A program made the position numbers and the translations under genes. Under the pieces are notes generated by a model that ran no database searches, was not told where the DNA came from, and saw nothing but the letters and a program-made list of their open reading frames with translations. Shown piece after piece: positions 17,228 through 48,994 of a stretch of 64,000 bases of DNA. Position 1 is the stretch's first letter. Every line of letters starts with the position of its first letter. This DNA comes from Trichodelitschia bisporula (taxonomy: Eukaryota): the NCBI GenBank assembly GCA_010356995.1, contig ML996706.1, forward strand, positions 563,789 to 627,788. The letters run 5' to 3'.

Positions 17228-17323
17228 TGGTCAGTACGGGGGTCGAACCCGCGACCTTGGCGTGTACAAGTACATTCAAGACTCATATTAGCACCACGCT
17301 CTAACCAACTGAGCTAACCGACC
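17228..17323 (-). tRNA. tRNA-Ile(AAT) with 22-nt intron
   Basis: GGTCGGT TA GCTC AGTTGGTTA GAGC G TGGTG CT AAT A [intron 17285-17264] A CGCCA AGGTC GCGGG TTCGACC CCCGT ACTGACC A; all stems pair. Confidence 0.95.
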
Positions 17324-19411: not shown

Positions 19412-19612
19412 TTAATCATATCTCCTCCGCATTGCGGCCTCTCTCGCCAGCACATCAAGGATCTGGATCTGACATTGCCGGCACCGAGTGCGTCCGAATG
19501 TCAGTCCATGTAAAACGGTCTCCCGACAGTGCTCTGGAGTTTCGTCGCAGGGGCGGACCATTTCCTTGTCCCTGTGGCCACAGATGTATTCGACCCACTG
19601 ATAGATACACAT
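19412..19612 (-). CDS. Met-Cys CGH/CxxC microprotein, array member 1 (66 aa)
   Basis: MCIYQWVEYICGHRDKEMVRPCDETPEHC...CRQC; TATA-like TATATATA about 70 bp upstream (19681-19688). Confidence 0.75.
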   Translation of the reverse strand: MCIYQWVEYICGHRDKEMVRPCDETPEHCRETVLHGLTFGRTRCRQCQIQILDVLAREAAMRRRYD

Positions 19613-19788
19613 TATGGTTGAAATCGGATTGTGATGGATATGGGATGGATGGACTTAACATTTCGGATGGGATAGGAGGGTATATATACCTCAGACGGGC
19701 GATTCACGTCTAAGTTGGCAAGTGCATTGTAGCAGGTGAATTGTAGCAGGTGAATTAAGCTGATGAATTACAGGTCTTTACAAGGGAC

Positions 19789-20037
19789 TTAACGGCCGGT
19801 TAGCACAAGAAATCCAAAAGGCTGCGGATACTCCTTCGATCGAGATGCGAACGGAACGATCCGCCAACCGTCGGGGAACGTTCTTAATTTCTTACCCTTT
19901 ACGCACATATAACAAAGCTCTCTTGTCTCATTCCAGATTGTCTGCTTGTGCCCGGTACGCGACTCGTCCTCGCAGACCTTGACAGGGACGGTGTATTCGT
20001 GCCCGCACCAATAAGTGATGATCTGGAAGACGCACAT
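19789..20037 (-). CDS. Met-Cys CGH/CxxC microprotein, member 2 (82 aa)
   Basis: AAG ATG TGC start; MCVFQIITYWCGHEYTVPVKVCEDESRTGHKQTIWNETRELCYMC... Confidence 0.75.
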   Translation of the reverse strand: MCVFQIITYWCGHEYTVPVKVCEDESRTGHKQTIWNETRELCYMCVKGKKLRTFPDGWRIVPFASRSKEYPQPFGFLVLTGR

Positions 20038-20996
20038 CTTGATCTGCAGAGTTGGATGGAAGGAGATGCTGGAAGTGGAAGATGGAAGGGTGGTGAATGA
20101 GTTCATGGGACACTCTTCAACGGTATTATACCTGATCGGATGATAAAATGTGAGACCAAACTTTCACTCAGTGAACAACAAATTGTTCGAACCAACAAAG
20201 CAGAACCACTTTCATGAGTTAGCTCTGCGCCATGAGGCAGGCAGCACAGCGGCATTGTTGGAAGCCGCCGCTCAGCCAGAGCGGGCTTGTCAACTTGCTG
20301 GTCTCTGCCCGCCTGCCAAAGTGAGGGAAAAACAGCACCATGTTGAGTTTAGAAACTCGCTGACCTAGCTGAAGGATTAGTATCAATTGCACATCTTGTT
20401 GTATACTTCGAAGTCGTCTCCACTTCGTTGCCTGCCACGCGATCAGGCCTAGAACCACATGGACCCTTGCCGGAGTCCGGGGGTGGAGCTCGGAGGTGGT
20501 TCCGGGTCACCACCACAGCCCTTGCCTTAGGGCAGGATCATGGGAGTCGGGGATTGAAGTCGTCCCTCTACTCCATCTCCTCACGTTTTACCTTCGACTA
20601 GGCAATCTTAGAAGAAACAGCTGGCCTGGCCGCAGAATCAGTTCTATCGCACATTTCATTGAGCATTACGCCCTTGTCGGTCTTTGACGTCTCTCACAGC
20701 ATTGCTACGGGCTTTGTTGTCGAAGAAAGGGAGATCAAGACTGCAACGTTTGTGGGCTAACCGCACAATCGTGAGTTCTCTGTGAAGCTTGCGATATCAC
20801 TTCTGACTTTGCCCAGGGCGTTTATAGAGCTTCGCTTCCGCGCTTCATTTCTGCTCCTCGCCCGCTCTTCTTTGCAAACGCAGCTTGCTAGATCCCTGAT
20901 TTAGGCAAACGACAACGCATTCCAGAACCTCTGCTCTTCTCCGCCGCCCTTACTCGCCCACTTCCTTCACCGAGCCCGAAGATCTCCGTAAGCAAG

Positions 20997-21212
20997 ATGT
21001 GTGTCGGTTCGTATTACACCTACTCGTGCGGGCACGGCAACGACCGACCCATCATCGAGCCTTGCACGCAGAGAGCGAAGCCGGCGCACAAGCTTGTCGA
21101 GCGCCAATACACGCTCGATTATCCTTGTGCCTATTGCAATGGGTATGTTGGCAAGTATCCGAAGGATGTATATGGGGACAGCAATTCCGAGTCTAAGACT
21201 CGGAGGAGGTGA
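20997..21212 (+). CDS. Met-Cys CGH/CxxC microprotein, member 3 (71 aa)
   Basis: AAG ATG TGT start; MCVGSYYTYSCGHGNDRPIIEPCTQRAKPAHKLVERQYTLDYPCAYC... The stop overlaps GTGAGT, so a further exon is possible. Confidence 0.75.
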   Translation: MCVGSYYTYSCGHGNDRPIIEPCTQRAKPAHKLVERQYTLDYPCAYCNGYVGKYPKDVYGDSNSESKTRRR

Positions 21213-21751
21213 GTCTGAACTGACATAACGGCACGGTTGACGAATGATGGCTTACGATTGCTCCTTTTAGGTCGCACACAATTTGACATCTTTTGAAACC
21301 TCTCTGCTAATGATTGGCGTGAAAAGAACCGCTCGCAGTGACCTTCAAGCCGCAGTAAGTATGCCCTTGTGGGCACTAGATCAGCACCGCACAGTGCTTC
21401 TGTTGTGACGTCCCTGCAAGTTTGCGCGTAGAAGTACATCTCTTAGTCCATCCCCGGTGAGTGATGCTGCTCGCATTCGCGTTCCTCCTGTCCGGCGACA
21501 TGAAATGGGCGGCGACTTATCTTCTCGGCATGCCCATTGACGCGGCTGCCCCGTTTTTCAAAATAGTGCTTCATGCCTTCGTATTCGTCTTCGAGAACGG
21601 CTTCTTGGCTTCTCGATTGCTCGTACTGGCCGCCTTCCCCCTTGATATTAACCTCATTCTCCCATGTCTCCGCAACCACGCCACAAACTTCGCAACCTCT
21701 TTCGCCATCCCCGTTCATTTTCTACAACCACTTCGCAAGTCCTTTATCAAA

Positions 21752-22392
21752 ATGTGCCTCCAGACCAACTATCTGTACGCCTGCGGCCACGACGGAGGCT
21801 TTGACTTCCGCCCGTGCTCCCGCCGCGACCCGCCGCATAGGCCCGCCTTATACTGCGCCATCCTCTCCCTTACCAAGACGAAAGAGGCAGAGTGCCAGGC
21901 ATGCGCCGATGAGAAGACCTGCAAGAAGCTGAAGGATGCCAAGAATCTCGCTGAACAGTAAGTCTGCATCCGTGCTTAGTAGCGTGTGGATAGCATTATG
22001 GGCACTTAGAACTTACTAACGGCAACAGGACTGCGACAACCGATACTGAGCCAAAGACTCTAGATCTTCTTGCAGAGTCGATCGAGACTCTCGCAAAGGC
22101 GACGGACGAGATGATAAAGGCTTTGCATGAGGTGGATGAGAAGACGCAGACGCTCAACGAGATGAAGACCGCCTATCAGGATGAGTCGGAGTCGGAGTCG
22201 TCGGAGGGGGGTGGGGTCAAGTTGCCCGCTCAGCTTGCGGAGGGGAAGACCGCCCATCAAGATGAGTCGGAGTCGGAGTCGGAGGAGGGTGGGGTCAAGC
22301 TGCCGCGCCAGTTTGCGGAGGGTACGTTCACTGTCCAGCAAGAGTCCGTGGACGATGACAGCGATGGCGACATGAAGTTGCCTGGCAACTGA
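21752..22392 (+). CDS. Met-Cys CGH/CxxC protein with helical and acidic repeat tail, member 4 (about 189 aa, 2 exons)
   Basis: MCLQTNYLYACGHDGGFDFRPCSRRDPPH...CQAC. Intron 21958-22028 (GTAAGT...ACTAAC...CAG) puts exon 2 in frame with ORF 22111-22392. Confidence 0.75.
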
Positions 22393-23215
22393 TACGTGGG
22401 CTCGAGCACTCTTCACACTTTCGTTTTCGGCATCGTGCCAAAACTTGTTTCTCAATGTCCAAGTCAGGTCAAATCTACCATGAATGACTTTTATTCTCGT
22501 ACACTTCGATGTTTCTTCTCTTGTGGGCGTTTGAGCTGCCGCGCGTCACTATGAGGCTTCGTAGATATCTCGTCTTTCCACACGAACATTGCTTTCTACT
22601 TTCTGCATCGCTAGGAAGACAGTTCACCTTTCGTATTCACATTTTAGGCGATTTTTGCGCCCCTTATACGGCCCTATTAACACACAAGCCGCACCGTAAT
22701 GGCAGACACTAACTGATGGGCAGAGGAAGGGATATATTACCATACATCGTTACTACCTATACAGTATATACTTACTGCCTGTATTTGAACGGCAGGCATA
22801 GTTATAGTATAGTCATTGCCTACTATTAAGGCAGGCAAGGGAGCATGGTCAACACCGTACAGCTGGCAGGTGTTAGCTAGGGGACAGGAGAAGCATCTAT
22901 ATTGTTGACCTACATATATACAGCAGCTCCCCGCGGCCCTTTTGGCCGCGTTGGCAGTTATTCAGTTTTGCTTCTCACACATTGCATCGTGGCATTGTGC
23001 TGTCACAATACTAACGCCGGCCGATACCATACTAACTCGCCAAGCTCAGCCTTGCAGGGATCGCAACGCCGCCGGCATCTGTCCAACATCTAGGAGTATG
23101 AAGCCCGTTGAGCTGCCCGCGCCGGCTGAAGCTTACAGTGATCTAGGACTTGAAGAAGGTGCATGCAAAGCCATGTATTTTGCAAAGGGTTAGGCGAGAG
23201 TGGAATTGGCATGTA

Positions 23216-23378
23216 CTCGGTGAGTTCAAGCCGTTACCCGCTGCACTGGTTACCCGCAACGCTGTTTACCCGCAACACGCATTACCCGCAACGCTGATTA
23301 CCCGCGACTCTCGTTTCCCGCAGCACGGAATAGCCACAAGACAAGTTATTCGCAACGCGCATTGCCTTCAGCACCCAG
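23216..23378. repeat. 16-bp-period TTACCCGC array, possible DNA-transposon end or MITE relic
   Basis: TTACCCGC at 23234, 23250, 23266, 23282 and 23298, TTTCCCGC at 23314, and a degenerate copy at 23346. Flanked by TA-CTCGGTG ... CACCCAG-TA. Confidence 0.55.
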
Positions 23379-24087
23379 TACTCACCTCTAGGCATATTTC
23401 CTTAGATTTATTAGAGGCATTATGTGTACTCACAACTTTCCTCACCAAATCGCATGCCGCCTGAGTGAAGCGAAGGGCGAGGAAAGTGATTCATGAATCC
23501 AACTACGAGGTTCACAGGGTGCCTCGAGTACAGCACAAGTTCGGCATTTTGGCTTCACTTGGGTTAATTATGGGTGATGTATAATCCCATTAGGCTGCAG
23601 TGTAGAATTGTTCCCTATCCGCCTCTACTACATCTTCTCTTCTCCACTTCAGCTTTACAGCCACACTTGAAAATATTCTTGATCGACTGACAGCTTTTTG
23701 CGGTGTCGTTGTAAGATGTTGTCCCACATTAAGGAGATGTTGTCTTGCATTGACGAGGATGTAAAGATGCTCTTACGAGGCTCAAATCAATGAAACTTCG
23801 CACAACGGCTTGCAAGATCCTCTGAATGAGCACCCTCACCCAGCCGGGTGTTACGACAAGCTTCAGAAATGCTCTACCTGCGAAAAGATGGCGGGGGACA
23901 AGGAGCTGGCATATCAGATAGCCTGGGTCCTTTTGTACAGCTACAATGATATCCTTAAGGCAACGAGAATGCGAGACTTGCGGACGAAGTTGGCCGCTCC
24001 CAAGAACTTCTCCCACACTCTCAAGCCTTCAATTTAAGATTTCTGCTCCGCTCACCTCAGATCCGCAGTTTCAAAAGCTCCGCAAAG

Positions 24088-24414
24088 ATTTGCATTGTTA
24101 CCAAGCTCACGTTCAGCGGCTGTAAGCACGGCCACTTGGACCCTCGCAAGGGCCGGGTGTGCGATCGCGTGGGGGATCTAAGCAAAGATCACCTGCGCGT
24201 CTACGGATGGCTTCCGCGGCCAGGCTTTTGCCCTCCCTGCGAAGCACAGTTTAAAGAGCTGAATCGGGCGGAGGCTGAAGAGGCGCGGAGACTAGCGATC
24301 ATTGAAGCGAAGAAGAAACATGAACGGATGGCAGAGGAGAAAGATGGCAGAGGAAAAGTACCTCCGCGAGACGTTGGACCGCTTTTTGAGGGACGGCTCC
24401 GAATGAAGAGGTAA
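24088..24414 (+). pseudogene. Microprotein member 5 with ATT in place of the start ATG
   Basis: AAG ATT TGC..., otherwise open: (I)CIVTKLTFSGCKHGHLDPRKGRVCDRVGDLSKDHLRVYGWLPRPGFCPPC plus a charged helical tail. Confidence 0.7.
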
Positions 24415-24666
24415 GGAGAGCAAGCCTTGATTGATCAGTCCAGCCTTTGAGCGAGATTAATACCATTCACCTTTTTTGACCTGTAAGAAATGAGTTCCAT
24501 TTGCCCCGTGTGAAATGTGATGCCCATTCACTCGTCTCCGCTGCCCATAAAGCGAGTCGAACCTCGGAAGCCAGTCTTTGTCTGCAACCCGACAAAGCAC
24601 CTCAGAATCCACAAGGATCCTAAAGCAAATCACCTTTCCTCTATTGCACCGCTTCTAAAAGCCAAG

Positions 24667-24834
24667 ATGTGTATAGGGACCTACATCACATCCAGTGGAT
24701 GTGGCTGCAAGCGCCTTAAAATGATCACGCGCTGCGGCATGGCTGGTCAGGTGGGCCACGAACCGACAGTTTACGGATCGATATGTCGCCCTGGCCTCTG
24801 CGGAGGCTGTGCTGCGGTGAGATCGTTTTGGTGA
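24667..24834 (+). CDS. Met-Cys microprotein, member 6 (55 aa)
   Basis: AAG ATG TGT; MCIGTYITSSGCGCKRLKMITRCGMAGQVGHEPTVYGSICRPGLCGGCAAVRSFW. Confidence 0.75.
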   Translation: MCIGTYITSSGCGCKRLKMITRCGMAGQVGHEPTVYGSICRPGLCGGCAAVRSFW

Positions 24835-25089
24835 GTCGGGATGAGCTGGGTGTCAATCTAGCTCTGTGAGAAGATCAATACCATCCGCTTTCCAAAGGAC
24901 ATTGAATGAGTCCGCTTGCTGTGTGTAAAATGTGATGCCCATTCACCCATCTCCGCTGCCTACATAAGGCGAGTCGAACCGCAAAACTAGGCTTTGTCTG
25001 CAATCCAATAAAGCACCTCAGAATTCCAAAGATCCTTAAGAAACCCGTTTTTCGCTTCTTGTTGTACTGCATCCCGCTTGACATCCAAC

Positions 25090-25400
25090 ATGTGCCTGGG
25101 TACCAAAGTCACGCTGGAGGGCTGCGGCCACGCGGTGTGTTAAAATGAAGTGTGAACTTGACTGAGTTGCTTAACTAACTAGCAGTGGGAAGTGGGCTGA
25201 CTATATACATCGCCGGGAGACGACCCCTGTCTCCTGGCTCCACTCCAGCCACCCCAGGTTGCCACCACAAATTCAACACGGTGATTGACATTTGGGCGTA
25301 CTGCAACTTGGCTGGTACGCGGAACCACAGGCTGAGGGCGTATGGGTGGATAAGCCGGCCTGGCGTTTGTGAGGATTGCCTCGCGGGGGCTCCGTGGTGA
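25090..25400 (+). pseudogene. Microprotein member 7, interrupted by a solo LTR
   Basis: Removing 25138-25283 restores MCLGTKVTLEGCGHAVIDIWAYCNLAGTRNHRLRAYGWISRPGVCEDCLAGAPW* (54 aa), colinear with member 8. Confidence 0.85.
25138..25278. mobile_element. Solo LTR (141 bp) with 5-bp target-site duplication
   Basis: Starts TGTTAAAAT and ends AATTCAACA (TG...CA, imperfect inverted termini). CGGTG is duplicated at 25133-25137 and 25279-25283; internal TATATA at about 25202. Confidence 0.85.
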
Positions 25401-25702
25401 GAGAAACCGCAGGTCGAGGGTTGATGGATCGATAACTCGTCTTGCCATCCACGGAGGCTGCGCCGCAGTGTGATCGCTTCGGTAAGTGAGGATGAACCGG
25501 TTGTCAGCATAAGACCTTCAGAGGATCAATACCATCGCTTCTTTGAAATGCATCGGATGAATCCCACTTACCGCATGTGGAATCTGATGTGAATTCACTC
25601 AACATTAGCTGGCTATAAAAAGCGATCCGAAGTGCAGAACTACTCTTGGTAGTCGAAACCCCAACAAACCCCTCCATAATCCCATCGCATCGAGCATCCG
25701 GC

Positions 25703-25867
25703 ATGTATTTTGGTACCAAAGTCACGCGGGAGGACTGTGGCCATGTAGAGATTGACATGTGAGGATACTGCAACTTATATGGTACGCGGGGCCACAGGCC
25801 GAGGCTTTACGGATGGATAAGTCAACCGGGTTCCTGCGAGAGGTGCCTCCGGAGGAACCTGTTGTGA
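25703..25867 (+). pseudogene. Microprotein member 8, with Cys2->Tyr and an internal stop
   Basis: MYFGTKVTREDCGHVEIDM*GYCNLYGTRGHRPRLYGWISQPGSCERCLRRNLL*; TGA at 25760-25762 aligns with TGG (Trp) of member 7. Confidence 0.85.
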
Positions 25868-26010
25868 GAGAAAGCCCAGAAAGAGGGTTTATGGATCGAT
25901 TGCTTAGATGATTGAGCAGGAATCGGTTGTCAACCCAGCCTCTGAGAGAATCAATACCATCGCTTCTTTGAAATGCATTGAATGAATCCCACTTACCGTA
26001 TGTGAATGCA

Positions 26011-26140
26011 ATATGAATCGACACATCATCAGCCAGCTGCGGCCTTACGGAGACTGACAGAATGGTAGCCTGTAGCCAGCTTGGTGAGAGGAACCGCAGG
26101 CCGAAGGCTCATGGATGGATAGCCCGTGAGGACTGCAGCT
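26011..26140 (+). pseudogene. Highly decayed microprotein member 9
   Basis: ATA TGA ATC ... SASCGLTETDRMVACSQLGERNRRPKAHGWIAREDC retains CG, C and GWI in family spacing. Confidence 0.55.
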
Positions 26141-26444
26141 CGTGGACATACGGCATTAGTCGGTTGCGATGAAAGTATTGAGCTTTCTCGTTGATTGTCT
26201 GCGAAGAAATCAATGCCCACATTCGTCGGCAAACAATTCGAATCGAGCGACCACCGCTGCTTACCTGTCCGCACATTCCACAATTCTCACAAGCTTCCCT
26301 TGACCATCAACCTCCCTCAAAAGTCAGTCTTTCATTCAGCCTCCGATTTCTAGCGGGAATCAAATTCCTCGCAAGCCCCTCCCCAGGTTTGTCATCCTTT
26401 TTTCGAAGTCCAGCGACTAAAAGCCACAGATCCTACTCGCAAAC

Positions 26445-26612
26445 ATGTGCATATCAACAAAAATCACGTACGCTTGCAGACACACCTACCTGATTGGTGT
26501 TACCTACTGCGAGAACCGCGACACCTATGGCCATCAAAATAGCGTGTACGGGTGGCTCACACGTCCGGAGCTCTGCTTCTACTGCCTCCCAGAACGGTAT
26601 GAAGAGATCTGA
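26445..26612 (+). CDS. Met-Cys microprotein, member 10 (55 aa; below the ORF-track cutoff)
   Basis: AAC ATG TGC; MCISTKITYACRHTYLIGVTYCENRDTYGHQNSVYGWLTRPELCFYCLPERYEEI*. Confidence 0.8.
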   Translation: MCISTKITYACRHTYLIGVTYCENRDTYGHQNSVYGWLTRPELCFYCLPERYEEI

Positions 26613-27200
26613 GGATGCTGATGGGATTGTGAATCGGGACTGGTTGAAGGGTGATTGCCACGATGGTTTGATGATGTTCGATGGTGGACTAGAACCCTGA
26701 AATCAAGACCAACGTAATCCAATCCTTGCTGTCGCGTGAGTTCCATGTGCCTGCAGCCGTCAGTGCAGAACGTGGTGATCGCCCATGATCGCCGACAAGG
26801 CTACGCATCAACGTCGTCAGCCAAGCAGCGGGCATATAGATTACATACACGTACAGAACGTCATACGGTACTGTAAGATGTGGCAAACTGCGTCATCGCA
26901 CCAAGCAAGGCACAGGCGGGTGCACGGACCGCCTGTGGGCTCTCGCAGGGGGCTTAATGTCCGATGAGCGCGTTGTAATTGGCCAGCGCGCGCCACCACT
27001 GAAATGGACGGGCGGGTGTCACGTGGCCTGTGCTACCCGTACTTGACTGCCCAGAGCTGTCGCTTTGGGCTCGTCTCGCCTCTTCTCCCTCTCGCTTCGC
27101 ATTAGCCTCATCTCCACCTACCTTCGCTGTCTACATCACCACTTTCGCTCACCACGCGCACATCGACAACAATACCACCACATCCCACCACCCACATCTG

Positions 27201-29126
27201 ATGGCCTTTTGGCCGTTTCGCAGGAAACGTCGCCGCACAGTCTCTACCGCCCCCGAACCCGCCCCCGCCCCCGCCGCGCTCTACGCTTCCGACCCGGACG
27301 TCAAGTCCAAAGACTTCGGCCACCCCGCCTCGCCCACCTCGCCCACCTCCCCCTCCGACCCCAATCTCTACCGCCCACTCACCACCCTAAGCGCAGAAGA
27401 CATCACCGCACTCCCACGCGCCCGCGCCCTGCACACAAGCCCGCATCTCCGACCCGTGCGCCACGACGCCGACATCCCCTACGACTTCCGCCTCCCGAGC
27501 AGCACCTCGCTCGCCATGCGCAACAACGAAGACGACACTATGCCGCGCCGCAAGCCGAGCAAGAAGCGCAAGCGCCCCGGCGACAAACGGCTGCTGCGCG
27601 AGGAAGAACTGCGCGCCATGAGCGCACCGATGCGCGTCCCGTCGCGACGAGGGCCGAATCTGTTGCGCAAGGATAGCAGGCGCGTGAGGGATGGGCTAGG
27701 CGTCGGGCGGCGAGGCTTCGAGCGCCCGGTTAGCCAGGTTAGCTTGCCGCTGGAAGACAGCGTGCATGAAGACATGGAGGCGTGGCCGCCGCATGCGGTG
27801 CGGCTGAGCATGATGAATATGCTTGCGCCGCGGCCGGTGATTCGCTATGCGACGATGGCGCATTTGTCGAGTTCGAGTGAGCAGCTGGAGCAGCGGGCTG
27901 CGTCGCGCGCGCATCGACGGCCGCAGATGGAGGCGTTGCGGGAGGACACGAAGATTGATGGGTTGGCGGATGATTTGGATTCGAGTGGGTTGCGCGAGAT
28001 TATGGAGCGCGATCAGCGGAGGCGTGATCGGAAGAGGAGGACGCATGCTGAGCGGGTGAAGGTTAAGCTGGAGGAGCCGCGCAAGAAGTCGAAGCGTGGG
28101 CGGCGGAGGAGGGAGCCTGACGTGCGGCCGGCGACTGACGTGCAGCCCGAACCCGCCGCACAGCCCGAACCTGACGTACAGCAAACGGCCGATGTACACC
28201 AACACCCCGAAGCGCTGCAAAAGCTCACGATCCCGCCAATGCCCCTCCTGGAAGACAACGAACCCGAACGAGAACCAGAGCCCGTACCAATTCGCGACAT
28301 CGCCTCCCCCTCCCCTACCCCCACGCCCCTCGAATCCCCAACCCCAACCTCCCCCCTCTCCCCCCGCCGCATCGGAATGTGGGCCTCCATCTTCCGCCGC
28401 GAACACTCCTCCCCCCACCGCCGTTCTACACGCCACGACTCCGGCGCCGCCCTCTCCGGGCGCTCAAGCCGCGAACCCCACTCCCCCTCGCCCATGGTCG
28501 CCGGCGTCGGCATGGGCGGCGTTTCCGACGCATTCAACAAAGACAAGGGTGTCGAATTTCCATCCGAACCCCAGTCTGAGCCCGAGCCCGAGCGCTCGTT
28601 TAGCAATACGAGTAGGGAAAGCATCATGGCCCGACACGCGCAGGGCGCGCTTCCGCCGGCGCATTTGTATCAGCCCCCTAGTGGGTCGACGAGGTCGGGG
28701 AGTGTGCGTGTGGGGGGGAGTATTAGGGCGACGAGTCGGTTTAGGGAGGATTTGCCTGAGTTGTCGGTACCGCTGCAGTCAGGGACGCCGACGCCGGTGG
28801 CTACGCCGCTTGCGGTGCAGCCGCCGCAAACGCCGGATAAAACGAGGCGACATCCGTACCGCTCTGGCTCCCCTGCGGAAGCGGTCCTGGGCCCGAGTCG
28901 GTCGCTGGCGAGCATTGATAGTGAGGGGGAGTGGTTGGCTTCCGGGGGGAGGAGGGTTAGTTCGAGGGTTAGTTCGAGGGCGGGGCCGGTGGAGGATGAG
29001 GAGGAGGATGAGGTTGTGAGGAAGGGGGGGGGGATTGCGAGGACGCCGACGGTTATTTGGAGGGAGAATCGGGTTAAGAGTTCGGAGGGCTTGTTGAGGG
29101 AGGCGGGGGATGGGGATGATCGGTAG
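27201..29126 (+). CDS. Low-complexity, probably disordered hypothetical protein (641 aa)
   Basis: Long intronless ORF from MAFWPFRRKR, with motifs EDITALP...SPHLRP, LADDLDSSGLREIMERDQRRR and SLASIDSEGEWL; gene-like codon pattern. Confidence 0.8.
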   Translation: MAFWPFRRKRRRTVSTAPEPAPAPAALYASDPDVKSKDFGHPASPTSPTSPSDPNLYRPLTTLSAEDITALPRARALHTSPHLRPVRHDADIPYDFRLPSSTSLAMRNNEDDTMPRRKPSKKRKRPGDKRLLREEELRAMSAPMRVPSRRGPNLLRKDSRRVRDGLGVGRRGFERPVSQVSLPLEDSVHEDMEAWPPHAVRLSMMNMLAPRPVIRYATMAHLSSSSEQLEQRAASRAHRRPQMEALREDTKIDGLADDLDSSGLREIMERDQRRRDRKRRTHAERVKVKLEEPRKKSKRGRRRREPDVRPATDVQPEPAAQPEPDVQQTADVHQHPEALQKLTIPPMPLLEDNEPEREPEPVPIRDIASPSPTPTPLESPTPTSPLSPRRIGMWASIFRREHSSPHRRSTRHDSGAALSGRSSREPHSPSPMVAGVGMGGVSDAFNKDKGVEFPSEPQSEPEPERSFSNTSRESIMARHAQGALPPAHLYQPPSGSTRSGSVRVGGSIRATSRFREDLPELSVPLQSGTPTPVATPLAVQPPQTPDKTRRHPYRSGSPAEAVLGPSRSLASIDSEGEWLASGGRRVSSRVSSRAGPVEDEEEDEVVRKGGGIARTPTVIWRENRVKSSEGLLREAGDGDDR

Positions 29127-45875: not shown

Positions 45876-46300
45876 CCAGTGGCTCAGTCCCAAGTCTTCC
45901 CTTTTTAGGAATAACTCATGATCCCGCAGGTGCAGAAAGGGCATCAGCAGGAATGCGGCGCTCGAACGACGTTCTGCTCCATAAACCAACAAGCATAACA
46001 CTACGATATCCATCGCAGAAGGATTTACCGTGAGTACGATATTCATCGGAGAAGGATTTTACCGTGAGAGAACCGAAGGCTGTGTAAGTATCCAAGGGCG
46101 AAGAGGTTGGTGCCGAAGATGTTGGTAGCACGAGGATGTTGGACGGAGAGCATTGGAGGAATTGACACGTTGGAATTGGTCCTTTGGGTGCGAGGATATT
46201 GACGATAGCCTTCTAAATCTACTGTGCCTGGTGAGAAAGTGGATATATAATGCTGTTCAATGAGCCCTCCAGAAGTCAGTATCAGTTCACGTAGCCCAAA

Positions 46301-47118
46301 ATGCAGGTTTTCATCCTTATTCAGTTGTTGCTGGCAGGCGCCTCTTGCCTTGTCATACCCTCTTTCAAAGCTCTTCTTCCATCAGCCTTCAAGCGGAATG
46401 GAGACTCAGCCTTGTCTATTTCCCCCAAGCAAACCGACAACGAAACACATCTCATCTCTCGTGCCAACACTCCAGACGGCTCGGACGCAAAACCTTTTCA
46501 CATGCAATGGACAGTCAATCGCAACATTCTCCCCATTACAGAGGCGAATTGCTACGCATTACTTTGTCTCGGCGTCCCACAAGCCTTCCAATATGATAGC
46601 GTCAACGCTACACAAGATACGCGAAGGAGAGAATGTGGGGCGTTGCCTTCCCCGTTTGGCAACTCTGCGTCGGAACGAGTAGCTCAACAGGTTTCCAAAC
46701 CTTCGGACCATCCGGATTACGTCAGTGCGGAGGAGATTCCATTTGCTAGCACACATCAAGGAGGAAACGGAGCCATTGTCTTTCCTGTACCCATTGGTGC
46801 ACAGCGTGGTGAGTTCTTCTACTGGAGTCGTTTGGGACGAGTTAACACTGTCCAGCACAAGGGGGGCAGCTGGGTGATTTTGTGCAACACTCGAACATGG
46901 GACAGGGCGATCATTACACAAATAGCTTCGTACAAGGCGAAATACCATTGGGGAAATGGTGCACAGCTTATATGGCGGGGGATAGGTCAAAGTGCCCGGA
47001 GAAACCGGAGGAGGGTGACGATTTCCCTGAGGGGTACGCATACCGCAGGAATCAACTGAACCCGAAGAAGTACGAATTCATGGGTGAGGGCAAGAAGTGG
47101 ACAAAGCCGGCGTATTAG
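46301..47118 (+). CDS. Secreted NucA/NucB-like deoxyribonuclease (256 aa, 2 exons)
   Basis: Signal peptide MQVFILIQLLLAGASC; KR site; RRRECG, SAEEIPFASTHQGGNGA and, after intron 46809-46855, AQRAQGGQL, matching the DNase_NucA_NucB (D/E)E.PFAST.EGG...QGG pattern. TATATAA at about 46244. Confidence 0.75.
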
Positions 47119-48890: not shown

Positions 48891-48994
48891 CGACAACGGC
48901 AGGATTCGAACCTACGCTCCCGAAGGAACTGCCTTACTAACCCAAGATGATGGCGTATAGCAGGGCAGCGCGTTAACCACTCCGCCACGTTGCC
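48891..48994 (-). tRNA. tRNA-Ser(GCT) with 23-nt intron
   Basis: GGCAACG TG GCG GAGTGGTTAA CGC G CTGCC CT GCT A [intron] A GGCAG, long variable arm TTCCTTCGGGAG, then GTAGG TTCGAAT CCTGC CGTTGTC G. Confidence 0.95.

Follow-up and report, generated by a model that had tools for sequence, protein, structure and literature searches.

A zinc ribbon binds one zinc through two CxxC/CxxH knuckles at the tips of beta-hairpins, and a RING finger (C3HC4) uses eight ligands in the order CxxC ... CxH ... CxxC ... CxxC. The copper-fist of fungal copper-responsive transcription factors, which is ~40 residues long and starts at Met1, holds one zinc via Cys3His and has a small sheet. Here we describe a group of genes from Trichodelitschia bisporula that encode a Cys/His module whose distinctive trait, as far as the sequence tells, would be an obligate Met-Cys start. 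The genes lie side by side in a 64,000-nt stretch of contig ML996706.1 (assembly GCA_010356995.1; positions 563,789 to 627,788 of the forward strand), which we call the window and in which all coordinates below are counted. They are best described as a small putative Cys/His metal module amplified in tandem. We regard the array as a local tandem expansion, now partly decaying, of a large and uncurated fungal-type family of putative zinc modules, a reading to which we give a probability of ~0.6; the source of the family is probably the filamentous ascomycetes.

Copies of the module, their conservation and their decay

Eleven copies were counted within 7.2 kb (19.4-26.6 kb): six are intact, one has no start codon and four are decayed copies or fragments. 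The original prediction, which was made from the DNA letters alone, had listed six intact open reading frames (ORFs), all of which were found at the starts it gave, and at least 10 copies in total, to which our count adds a fragment at ~25405-25490. Two of the intact copies are on the reverse strand: c1 (19412-19612; 66 aa, MCIYQWVEYICGH...CRQC), with no in-frame ATG between the upstream stop and its start, and c2 (19789-20037; 82 aa), whose Met-Cys start is an internal ATG inside a 105-aa ORF. The other four are on the forward strand: c3 (20997-21212; 71 aa), c4 (21752-21957; a 69-aa ORF), c5 (24667-24834; 55 aa, with GCGC instead of CGH) and c6 (26445-26612; 55 aa, with CRH instead of CGH), the last being the copy used for AlphaFold2 modelling. 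In c7 (24088-24414, forward strand) ATT replaces ATG; the rest is open for 108 codons, keeps all ligand positions and ends in a charged helical tail.

The shared Cys/His motif that had been claimed, M-C-x8-9-C-[GKR]-[HC]-x8-10-C-..-H-..-C-x2-C, is confined, within the window, to the array. A regular expression for the motif, run over the six frames of the 64-kb window, gave seven matches, all between 19472 and 26585; these are the six intact copies and c7 at 24088, and 6/7 are preceded by Met. The same expression gave one match in total in 100 first-order Markov random sequences of 64 kb, and no Met stood before its first Cys. When the seven full copies were aligned, C2, C11, C22, C44 and C47 (c1 numbering) were invariant, and Met1, Tyr9, Gly12, His13 and a His near residue 30 were present in most copies. 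The aligned His near residue 30 is found in 6/7 copies, and that of c7 sits a few residues further on. The late CxxC is present in all seven copies and the Met-Cys start in all six that are intact, and the element Y9-x-C11-G12-H13, followed by Cys 8-10 residues on, is exact in c1-c4. Each protein of 55-108 residues contains 5-7 Cys and 1-4 His. The copies are true paralogues and share a module of ~50 residues that always begins Met1-Cys2, keeps C2, C11, H13, C22, an H/C near 30 and C44-x2-C47, and is followed by tails that are variable and often charged.

The residues between the ligands had been called highly divergent, and the seven full copies are indeed just 15-31% identical outside the ligand columns, with c5, c6 and c7 mutually nearest. 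The proportion of synonymous differences among them (pS) is 0.53-1.01 and that of non-synonymous differences (pN) 0.44-0.59, i.e. synonymous sites are saturated and non-synonymous sites nearly so. That the ligands are fixed despite such divergence is direct evidence for long purifying selection on them. The same saturation makes the ratio of non-synonymous to synonymous rates (dN/dS) uninformative for the old copies.

The start context proposed for the copies, AA(G/A/C)ATG, was too narrow: AA[GAC] directly precedes the start codon in 6/9 window starts and the remaining three do not fit, while an A at -3 is found in 8/9. In three of the six intact copies, the region from the nearest upstream stop to the Met-Cys start is free of in-frame ATG codons. 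The pooled GC content at third codon positions (GC3) of the family ORFs is 0.65 versus 0.47 at second positions (GC2), with a regional GC of 0.50-0.53; housekeeping ORFs elsewhere in the window have a GC3 of 0.70-0.74. The strongest value is that of c4 (0.79), the other copies being at 0.58-0.66. Consistent with the predicted absence of a signal peptide, hydrophobic runs within residues 1-30 were at most 2 long in all seven copies, as judged without a dedicated signal-peptide predictor. The maximum Kyte-Doolittle 9-residue mean was <=1.89 in the seven copies, so nothing in them resembles the N-terminal signal peptide of secreted small cysteine-rich fungal effectors.

The copies had also been labelled microproteins, a description that is only partly right, since c4 is exon 1 of a 189-aa protein. 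This protein (P0001) is hypothetical protein EJ06DRAFT_559822 of T. bisporula (NCBI); its residues 1-69 equal c4, its whole sequence is that of c4 joined to the downstream ORF 22111-22392, and the window encodes it identically. A splice scan of the window DNA regenerated the 189-aa product from exon 1 (21752-21957, the Cys/His module), a 71-nt intron at 21958-22028 (CA/GTAAGT ... TACTAAC ... CAG, the slash marking the exon border) and exon 2 at 22029-22392, all on the forward strand. Exon 2 encodes an acidic tail with a 78-nt tandem repeat (22164-22322; two units, 87% identity), each unit giving 26 acidic-tail residues (..QDESESES..GGVKLP..AEG). In c3, c4 and c5 alike, the stop codon of the ORF falls within a consensus 5' splice site, AG/GTGAGT in c3 (21209-21214), CA/GTAAGT in c4 (21957-21963) and TG/GTGAGT in c5 (24829-24836), and the public gene model contains the c4 intron. 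For c1, c2, c3, c5, c6 and c7 the splice scan gave no second exon that was convincing. The splice sites at the ends of c3 and c5 may be relics of an ancestral module-intron-tail gene structure.

The damaged copies were recovered both by reading the DNA and with a profile. The profile, trained on the seven full copies and applied to 2168 pieces from a six-frame translation of the window, picked up four pieces on which it had not been trained, at 25763-25864 (E 2.2e-6), 25179-25397 (E 8.3e-6), 26017-26169 (E 6.2e-4) and 25012-25140 (E 6.1e-3); nothing in the window outside the array reached E < 0.01, the best outside piece having E 0.029. Reading the DNA confirmed the damage that had been described at 24088, 25090, 25703 and 26011. 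All four decayed copies are on the forward strand. c8 is in two parts: its N-terminal piece (25090-25143; MCLGTKVTLEGCGHAVC, then a stop) is interrupted after CGHA by a 149-nt insertion that adds a stop and a frameshift, and its C-terminal piece (25284-25399; ..YCN..H..YGWISRPGVCEDC..) continues in a different frame. Rescue of c8 by an intron was ruled out, as no GT-AG pair brings the frame back. The eleventh fragment, c11 (~25405-25490), is a decayed homologue of the C-terminal part of c5 that has lost the first Cys of CxxC and contains a stop; it was recognised from its translation and from a self-blastn match of 24769-24997 with 25420-25650 (70% identity). In the pseudogene c9 (25703-25867) Cys2 has become Tyr and there is an in-frame TGA, and c10 (approximately 26017-26172) is a strongly decayed C-terminal remnant.

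Copies c5, c8, c11, c9 and c10, together with shared flanks, are contained in a younger tandem duplication at 24489-26127, with units of ~415-650 bp and a DNA identity of 66-82%; similarity at the DNA level was found nowhere else in the array. Between the C-terminal halves of c8 and c9, dN/dS is 0.41 (dS 0.77, 37 codons), so that constraint seemingly persisted for a while after duplication and the disabling changes came later. The routes of loss seen in the array are loss of the start codon, insertion with frameshift, nonsense mutation and deletion. Repeat-induced point mutation (RIP) was ruled out as the cause of decay, as the indices for 24.0-26.3 kb are not RIP-like (TpA/ApT 0.53; (CpA+TpG)/(ApC+GpT) 1.46). 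The younger sub-array was thus born by tandem DNA duplication and is now decaying, i.e. the birth-and-death evolution that had been proposed for the array.

A wider family in public sequence

To find relatives, metagenome contigs were scanned with a degenerate DNA pattern for M-C-x6-Y-x-C-G-H-x8-C, which matched at least 113 loci. The counts in this paragraph are those among the matches listed. Nearly all translate from ATG to open frames of ~40-895 aa (introns ignored). Several features that the pattern did not demand recur in them: a CxxC lies downstream in 52 of 74 distinct ORFs of at least 45 aa; an A occupies -3 in 75/98 distinct matches; and an upstream in-frame stop is present in 95/98, the stretch from there to the Met-Cys start being free of ATG in 75 of these 95. 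Extra copies seen by the profile alone (four loci, three of them independent) also begin with Met-Cys in 3/3 cases. Since they were not imposed by the search, these features indicate that the metagenome ORFs are true relatives with true starts. With flanks of up to 4 kb per side, a second copy was seen in just 4 of 108 metagenome loci (three independent cases); arrays are unusual in this family.

As a control, the same pattern gave eight matches in 596 Gb of prokaryote genomes, of which five are chance ORFs of 3-18 aa and three are family-like. The difference from the at least 113 metagenome loci shows that the array belongs to a large fungal-type family, in which the module lies at the very N-terminus. 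Two of the family-like prokaryote matches lie in one 6.7-Mb record labelled as the chromosome of an actinobacterial metagenome-assembled genome (loci L118, L121, L122 and L123). This record has a local GC of 53-57% and no dense bacterial ORFs, and looks mislabelled or chimeric eukaryotic; its two family copies are ~1 Mb apart, and one member seems to carry an intron after ..NVVAV.

The family profile scores all seven window copies, with E-values from 7e-11 to 3.4e-5 (2.6e-10 for c1). In a profile search of 1.84 billion representative proteins there were two matches at E <= 0.001, P0001 and an 80-aa metagenome ORF (P0002). A word-index search gave one candidate among short proteins, which did not score, and 470 among longer proteins, of which P0001 alone scored; a protein search from P0002 returned P0002 itself and no other, and a related-locus search from it returned no relative. 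The near-blank protein searches arise because gene callers systematically overlook the small proteins of this family: 7 out of 10 complete short ORFs from metagenomes (52-93 aa; loci L013, L036, L025, L030, L061, L002 and L020) are missing from a collection of 15 billion proteins. The ESM Atlas clusters closest to c3 and P0001 (scores of 0.90-0.92 and 0.84-0.85) consist of Ascomycota hypothetical proteins that belong to no Pfam family, and are leads only. These clusters and the fungal-type metagenome loci bear out the statement, in the original prediction, that filamentous ascomycetes have similar hypothetical proteins. Nothing on the family appeared in the titles and abstract openings returned by topical literature searches. 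The family is present in databases as unnamed hypothetical proteins, and many of its small members are not called as genes.

In a tree of 60 modules, 3/57 branches were well supported, and six of the seven window copies were placed together in a set of 12 rows with weak support. An approximately unbiased (AU) test did not reject a clade uniting all seven window copies (p 0.217), which is no proof of such a clade.

The putative metal module and alternative readings

No characterised family or known fold was matched with confidence in Pfam, PDB sequence, Foldseek or VIA-align searches. Against Pfam-A, the six intact copies gave nothing at or above the gathering cut-off (two sub-threshold chance rows), P0001 and 15 long relatives likewise gave nothing at or above it, and among the 60 aligned modules all matches were below it, with no family matching more than 2/60. 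One of these, zf-C3HC4_3, matched 2/60 members at E 0.22 or worse; a RING finger was ruled out, as there are seven conserved ligands and one CxxC. Profiles of 7 and of 60 sequences found no match at E <= 10 among PDB sequences. AlphaFold2 gave the same topology for c6 in two runs, with strands at residues 2-8, 14-20/21 and 32-39 and a helix from 49/50. The mean predicted local distance difference test score (pLDDT) was 73.7 with 8 sequences and 77.0 with 60, all five models of the second run being at 74-77.

In the predicted fold, a three-stranded sheet is followed by a helix that begins at the CxxC knuckle, and Cys2 would be a putative metal ligand at the start of strand 1. Such a role for Cys2 would explain the strictly N-terminal position of the module and its intolerance of N-terminal extension. 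We propose that the module is an intracellular mini-domain stabilised by metal, most likely zinc. With one thiolate as a bridge between the ions, on the principle known from the fungal Zn2Cys6 cluster, its seven ligands could accommodate two of them. The module is probably a binding scaffold for protein or nucleic acid, with a surface that would evolve freely and charged tails that vary.

Several points weigh against this reading. The odd number of ligands matches no standard two-zinc site, and CGH is altered in three of the seven full copies (C for H13 in c5, R for G12 in c6 and K for G12 in c7). The AlphaFold2 models of c6 are metal-free and of medium confidence. GC3 is weak in c5 (0.58) and c7 (0.59). 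In the 60-row alignment, M1, C2, Y9, C11, G12, H13 and C22 were forced by the search pattern and CxxC by a filter, so these columns are not independent evidence; the independent evidence consists of the seven window copies and the features that the pattern did not demand. Lastly, c4 alone of the six intact copies turned up among the predicted proteins of public collections, and some 'intact' copies could be silent.

Taken further, this last point would make the array a gene graveyard, with c4 as its sole working gene and the other 'intact' ORFs as unexpressed relics that are still open by chance. The superior coding signal of c4 (GC3 0.79 versus 0.58-0.66) and the fact that 5/11 copies are visibly broken are consistent with this. 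However, the absence of most small metagenome ORFs from the protein collection shows that gene callers routinely miss small ORFs of this family, and in c1, c2, c3, c5 and c6 the start codon, the A at -3, all ligands and the open frame are intact despite synonymous saturation, a pattern not expected from neutral decay. We consider a graveyard improbable. It is also unlikely, in our view, that the Cys/His set serves something other than structural zinc, be it copper, an iron-sulfur cluster, a thiol redox switch or a metal buffer. Small intracellular proteins so rich in Cys and His could be any of these, and a count of seven ligands is unusual among zinc fingers. On the other hand, the ligands are far apart along the predicted beta sheet, unlike the CxC/CC clusters of metallothioneins; neither the window copies nor the 60 members have a Pfam match to iron-sulfur, copper or metallothionein families; and the structural matches are far from significance.

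The original prediction had favoured a rapidly evolving cluster for conflict or recognition (allorecognition, antiviral or anti-transposon defence, or meiotic drive), with a fixed metal scaffold and a hypervariable surface. The fixed ligands on a near-random surface would suit such a cluster, as would the common pseudogenes and the exceptional copy density, 11 in 7.2 kb compared with the rarity of second copies at metagenome loci and the mere two in the 6.7-Mb fungal-type record. Yet a signal of positive selection was not seen, the old copies being saturated and the young pair having a dN/dS of 0.41; there is no toxin, nuclease, NLR, HET or transposon domain within or adjoining the array; and ordinary gene families also show tandem duplication and decay. 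A conflict cluster is accordingly a doubtful proposition. Equally speculative is a more elaborate version, in which the N-terminal Cys left free by Met removal would act as a ligand, oxidation sensor or degron, the family would consist of N-terminal-cysteine sensors or switches, and the array would be a fast-turnover recognition or conflict cluster.

We thus retain the local expansion of a putative zinc-module family as the best explanation. The array is solidly observed, and its family is broad and uncurated; an unexpected mechanism is not yet indicated. The module is common in fungal DNA yet uncurated, having neither a Pfam family nor a solved relative, in part because gene callers pass over its small members. 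The strict Met-Cys start is an unusual and testable constraint on a putative metal domain, and the array, in which diverged, intact and broken copies are neighbours, is convenient material for defining key residues. A regulatory or conflict-related role would make the module a new class of small zinc proteins specific to fungi; with a merely structural role, the gain would be better annotation of small fungal genes.

Surroundings of the array and comparison with known systems

The array is flanked by ordinary eukaryotic genes, which encode a glycerol-3-phosphate acyltransferase, an ABC ATPase, a TRM5/TYW2-like methyltransferase and an EF-hand protein, and no transposon or other domains were found in the remaining array ORFs or the flanks. 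Its downstream neighbour is a 707-aa open frame without a Pfam family (27003-29126, forward strand). Inside the array, the 1.6-kb spacer at 22400-24000 has a GC of 0.48 and a TpA/ApT of 0.94, versus 0.41-0.89 in the rest of the window; it contains no ORF matching the Met-Cys module family, and at 23234-23329 there is a 16-nt tandem repeat (TTACCCGCAACACTGA, ~4.5-6 units). Elsewhere in the window, a 254-aa frame at 46295-47059 (forward strand) matches the NucA/NucB deoxyribonuclease family (E 1.1e-7). Two tRNA genes found with Rfam on the reverse strand, at 17228-17323 and 48891-48994, exceed the 71-position model and are probably intron-bearing; ARAGORN called the first, with an odd four-base anticodon, and did not call the second.

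Among described proteins, the copper fist offers an analogy for an obligately N-terminal metal module, with a different ligand spacing. The window copies and the 60 members have no Pfam match to it, and it is absent among the VIA-align matches listed. The C-terminal Zn(Cys)4 dimerisation domain of Fur/PerR (2fe3_A, 9ire_B and 2xig_A), which combines a sheet-plus-helix arrangement with cysteine ligands, recurs in both VIA-align searches. Nearest in both Foldseek searches against the PDB were zinc-ribbon ribosomal proteins of the bacterial large subunit (e.g. 7kgb_6), small beta-rich domains with a CxxC knuckle, at values that are not significant (best E 0.49 and 0.56; TM 0.33-0.45; rmsd 5-13 A). 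The window proteins differ from them in having a single CxxC and a lone Cys2 at the start, and there is no sequence match.

The closest likeness is to proteins without a name or a Pfam family, the Ascomycota hypothetical proteins of the ESM Atlas and the metagenome MC-x6-Y-x-CGH ORFs. Like the window copies, these begin with Met-Cys and go on with the Y-x-C-G-H turn, another Cys eight residues further, a fifth Cys/His and the late CxxC; the proteins are ~50 to ~900 aa long and their tails vary. In most of these relatives Cys is the fifth ligand, as against His in 6/7 window copies, and where the relatives are mostly single-copy at each locus, the window holds 11.

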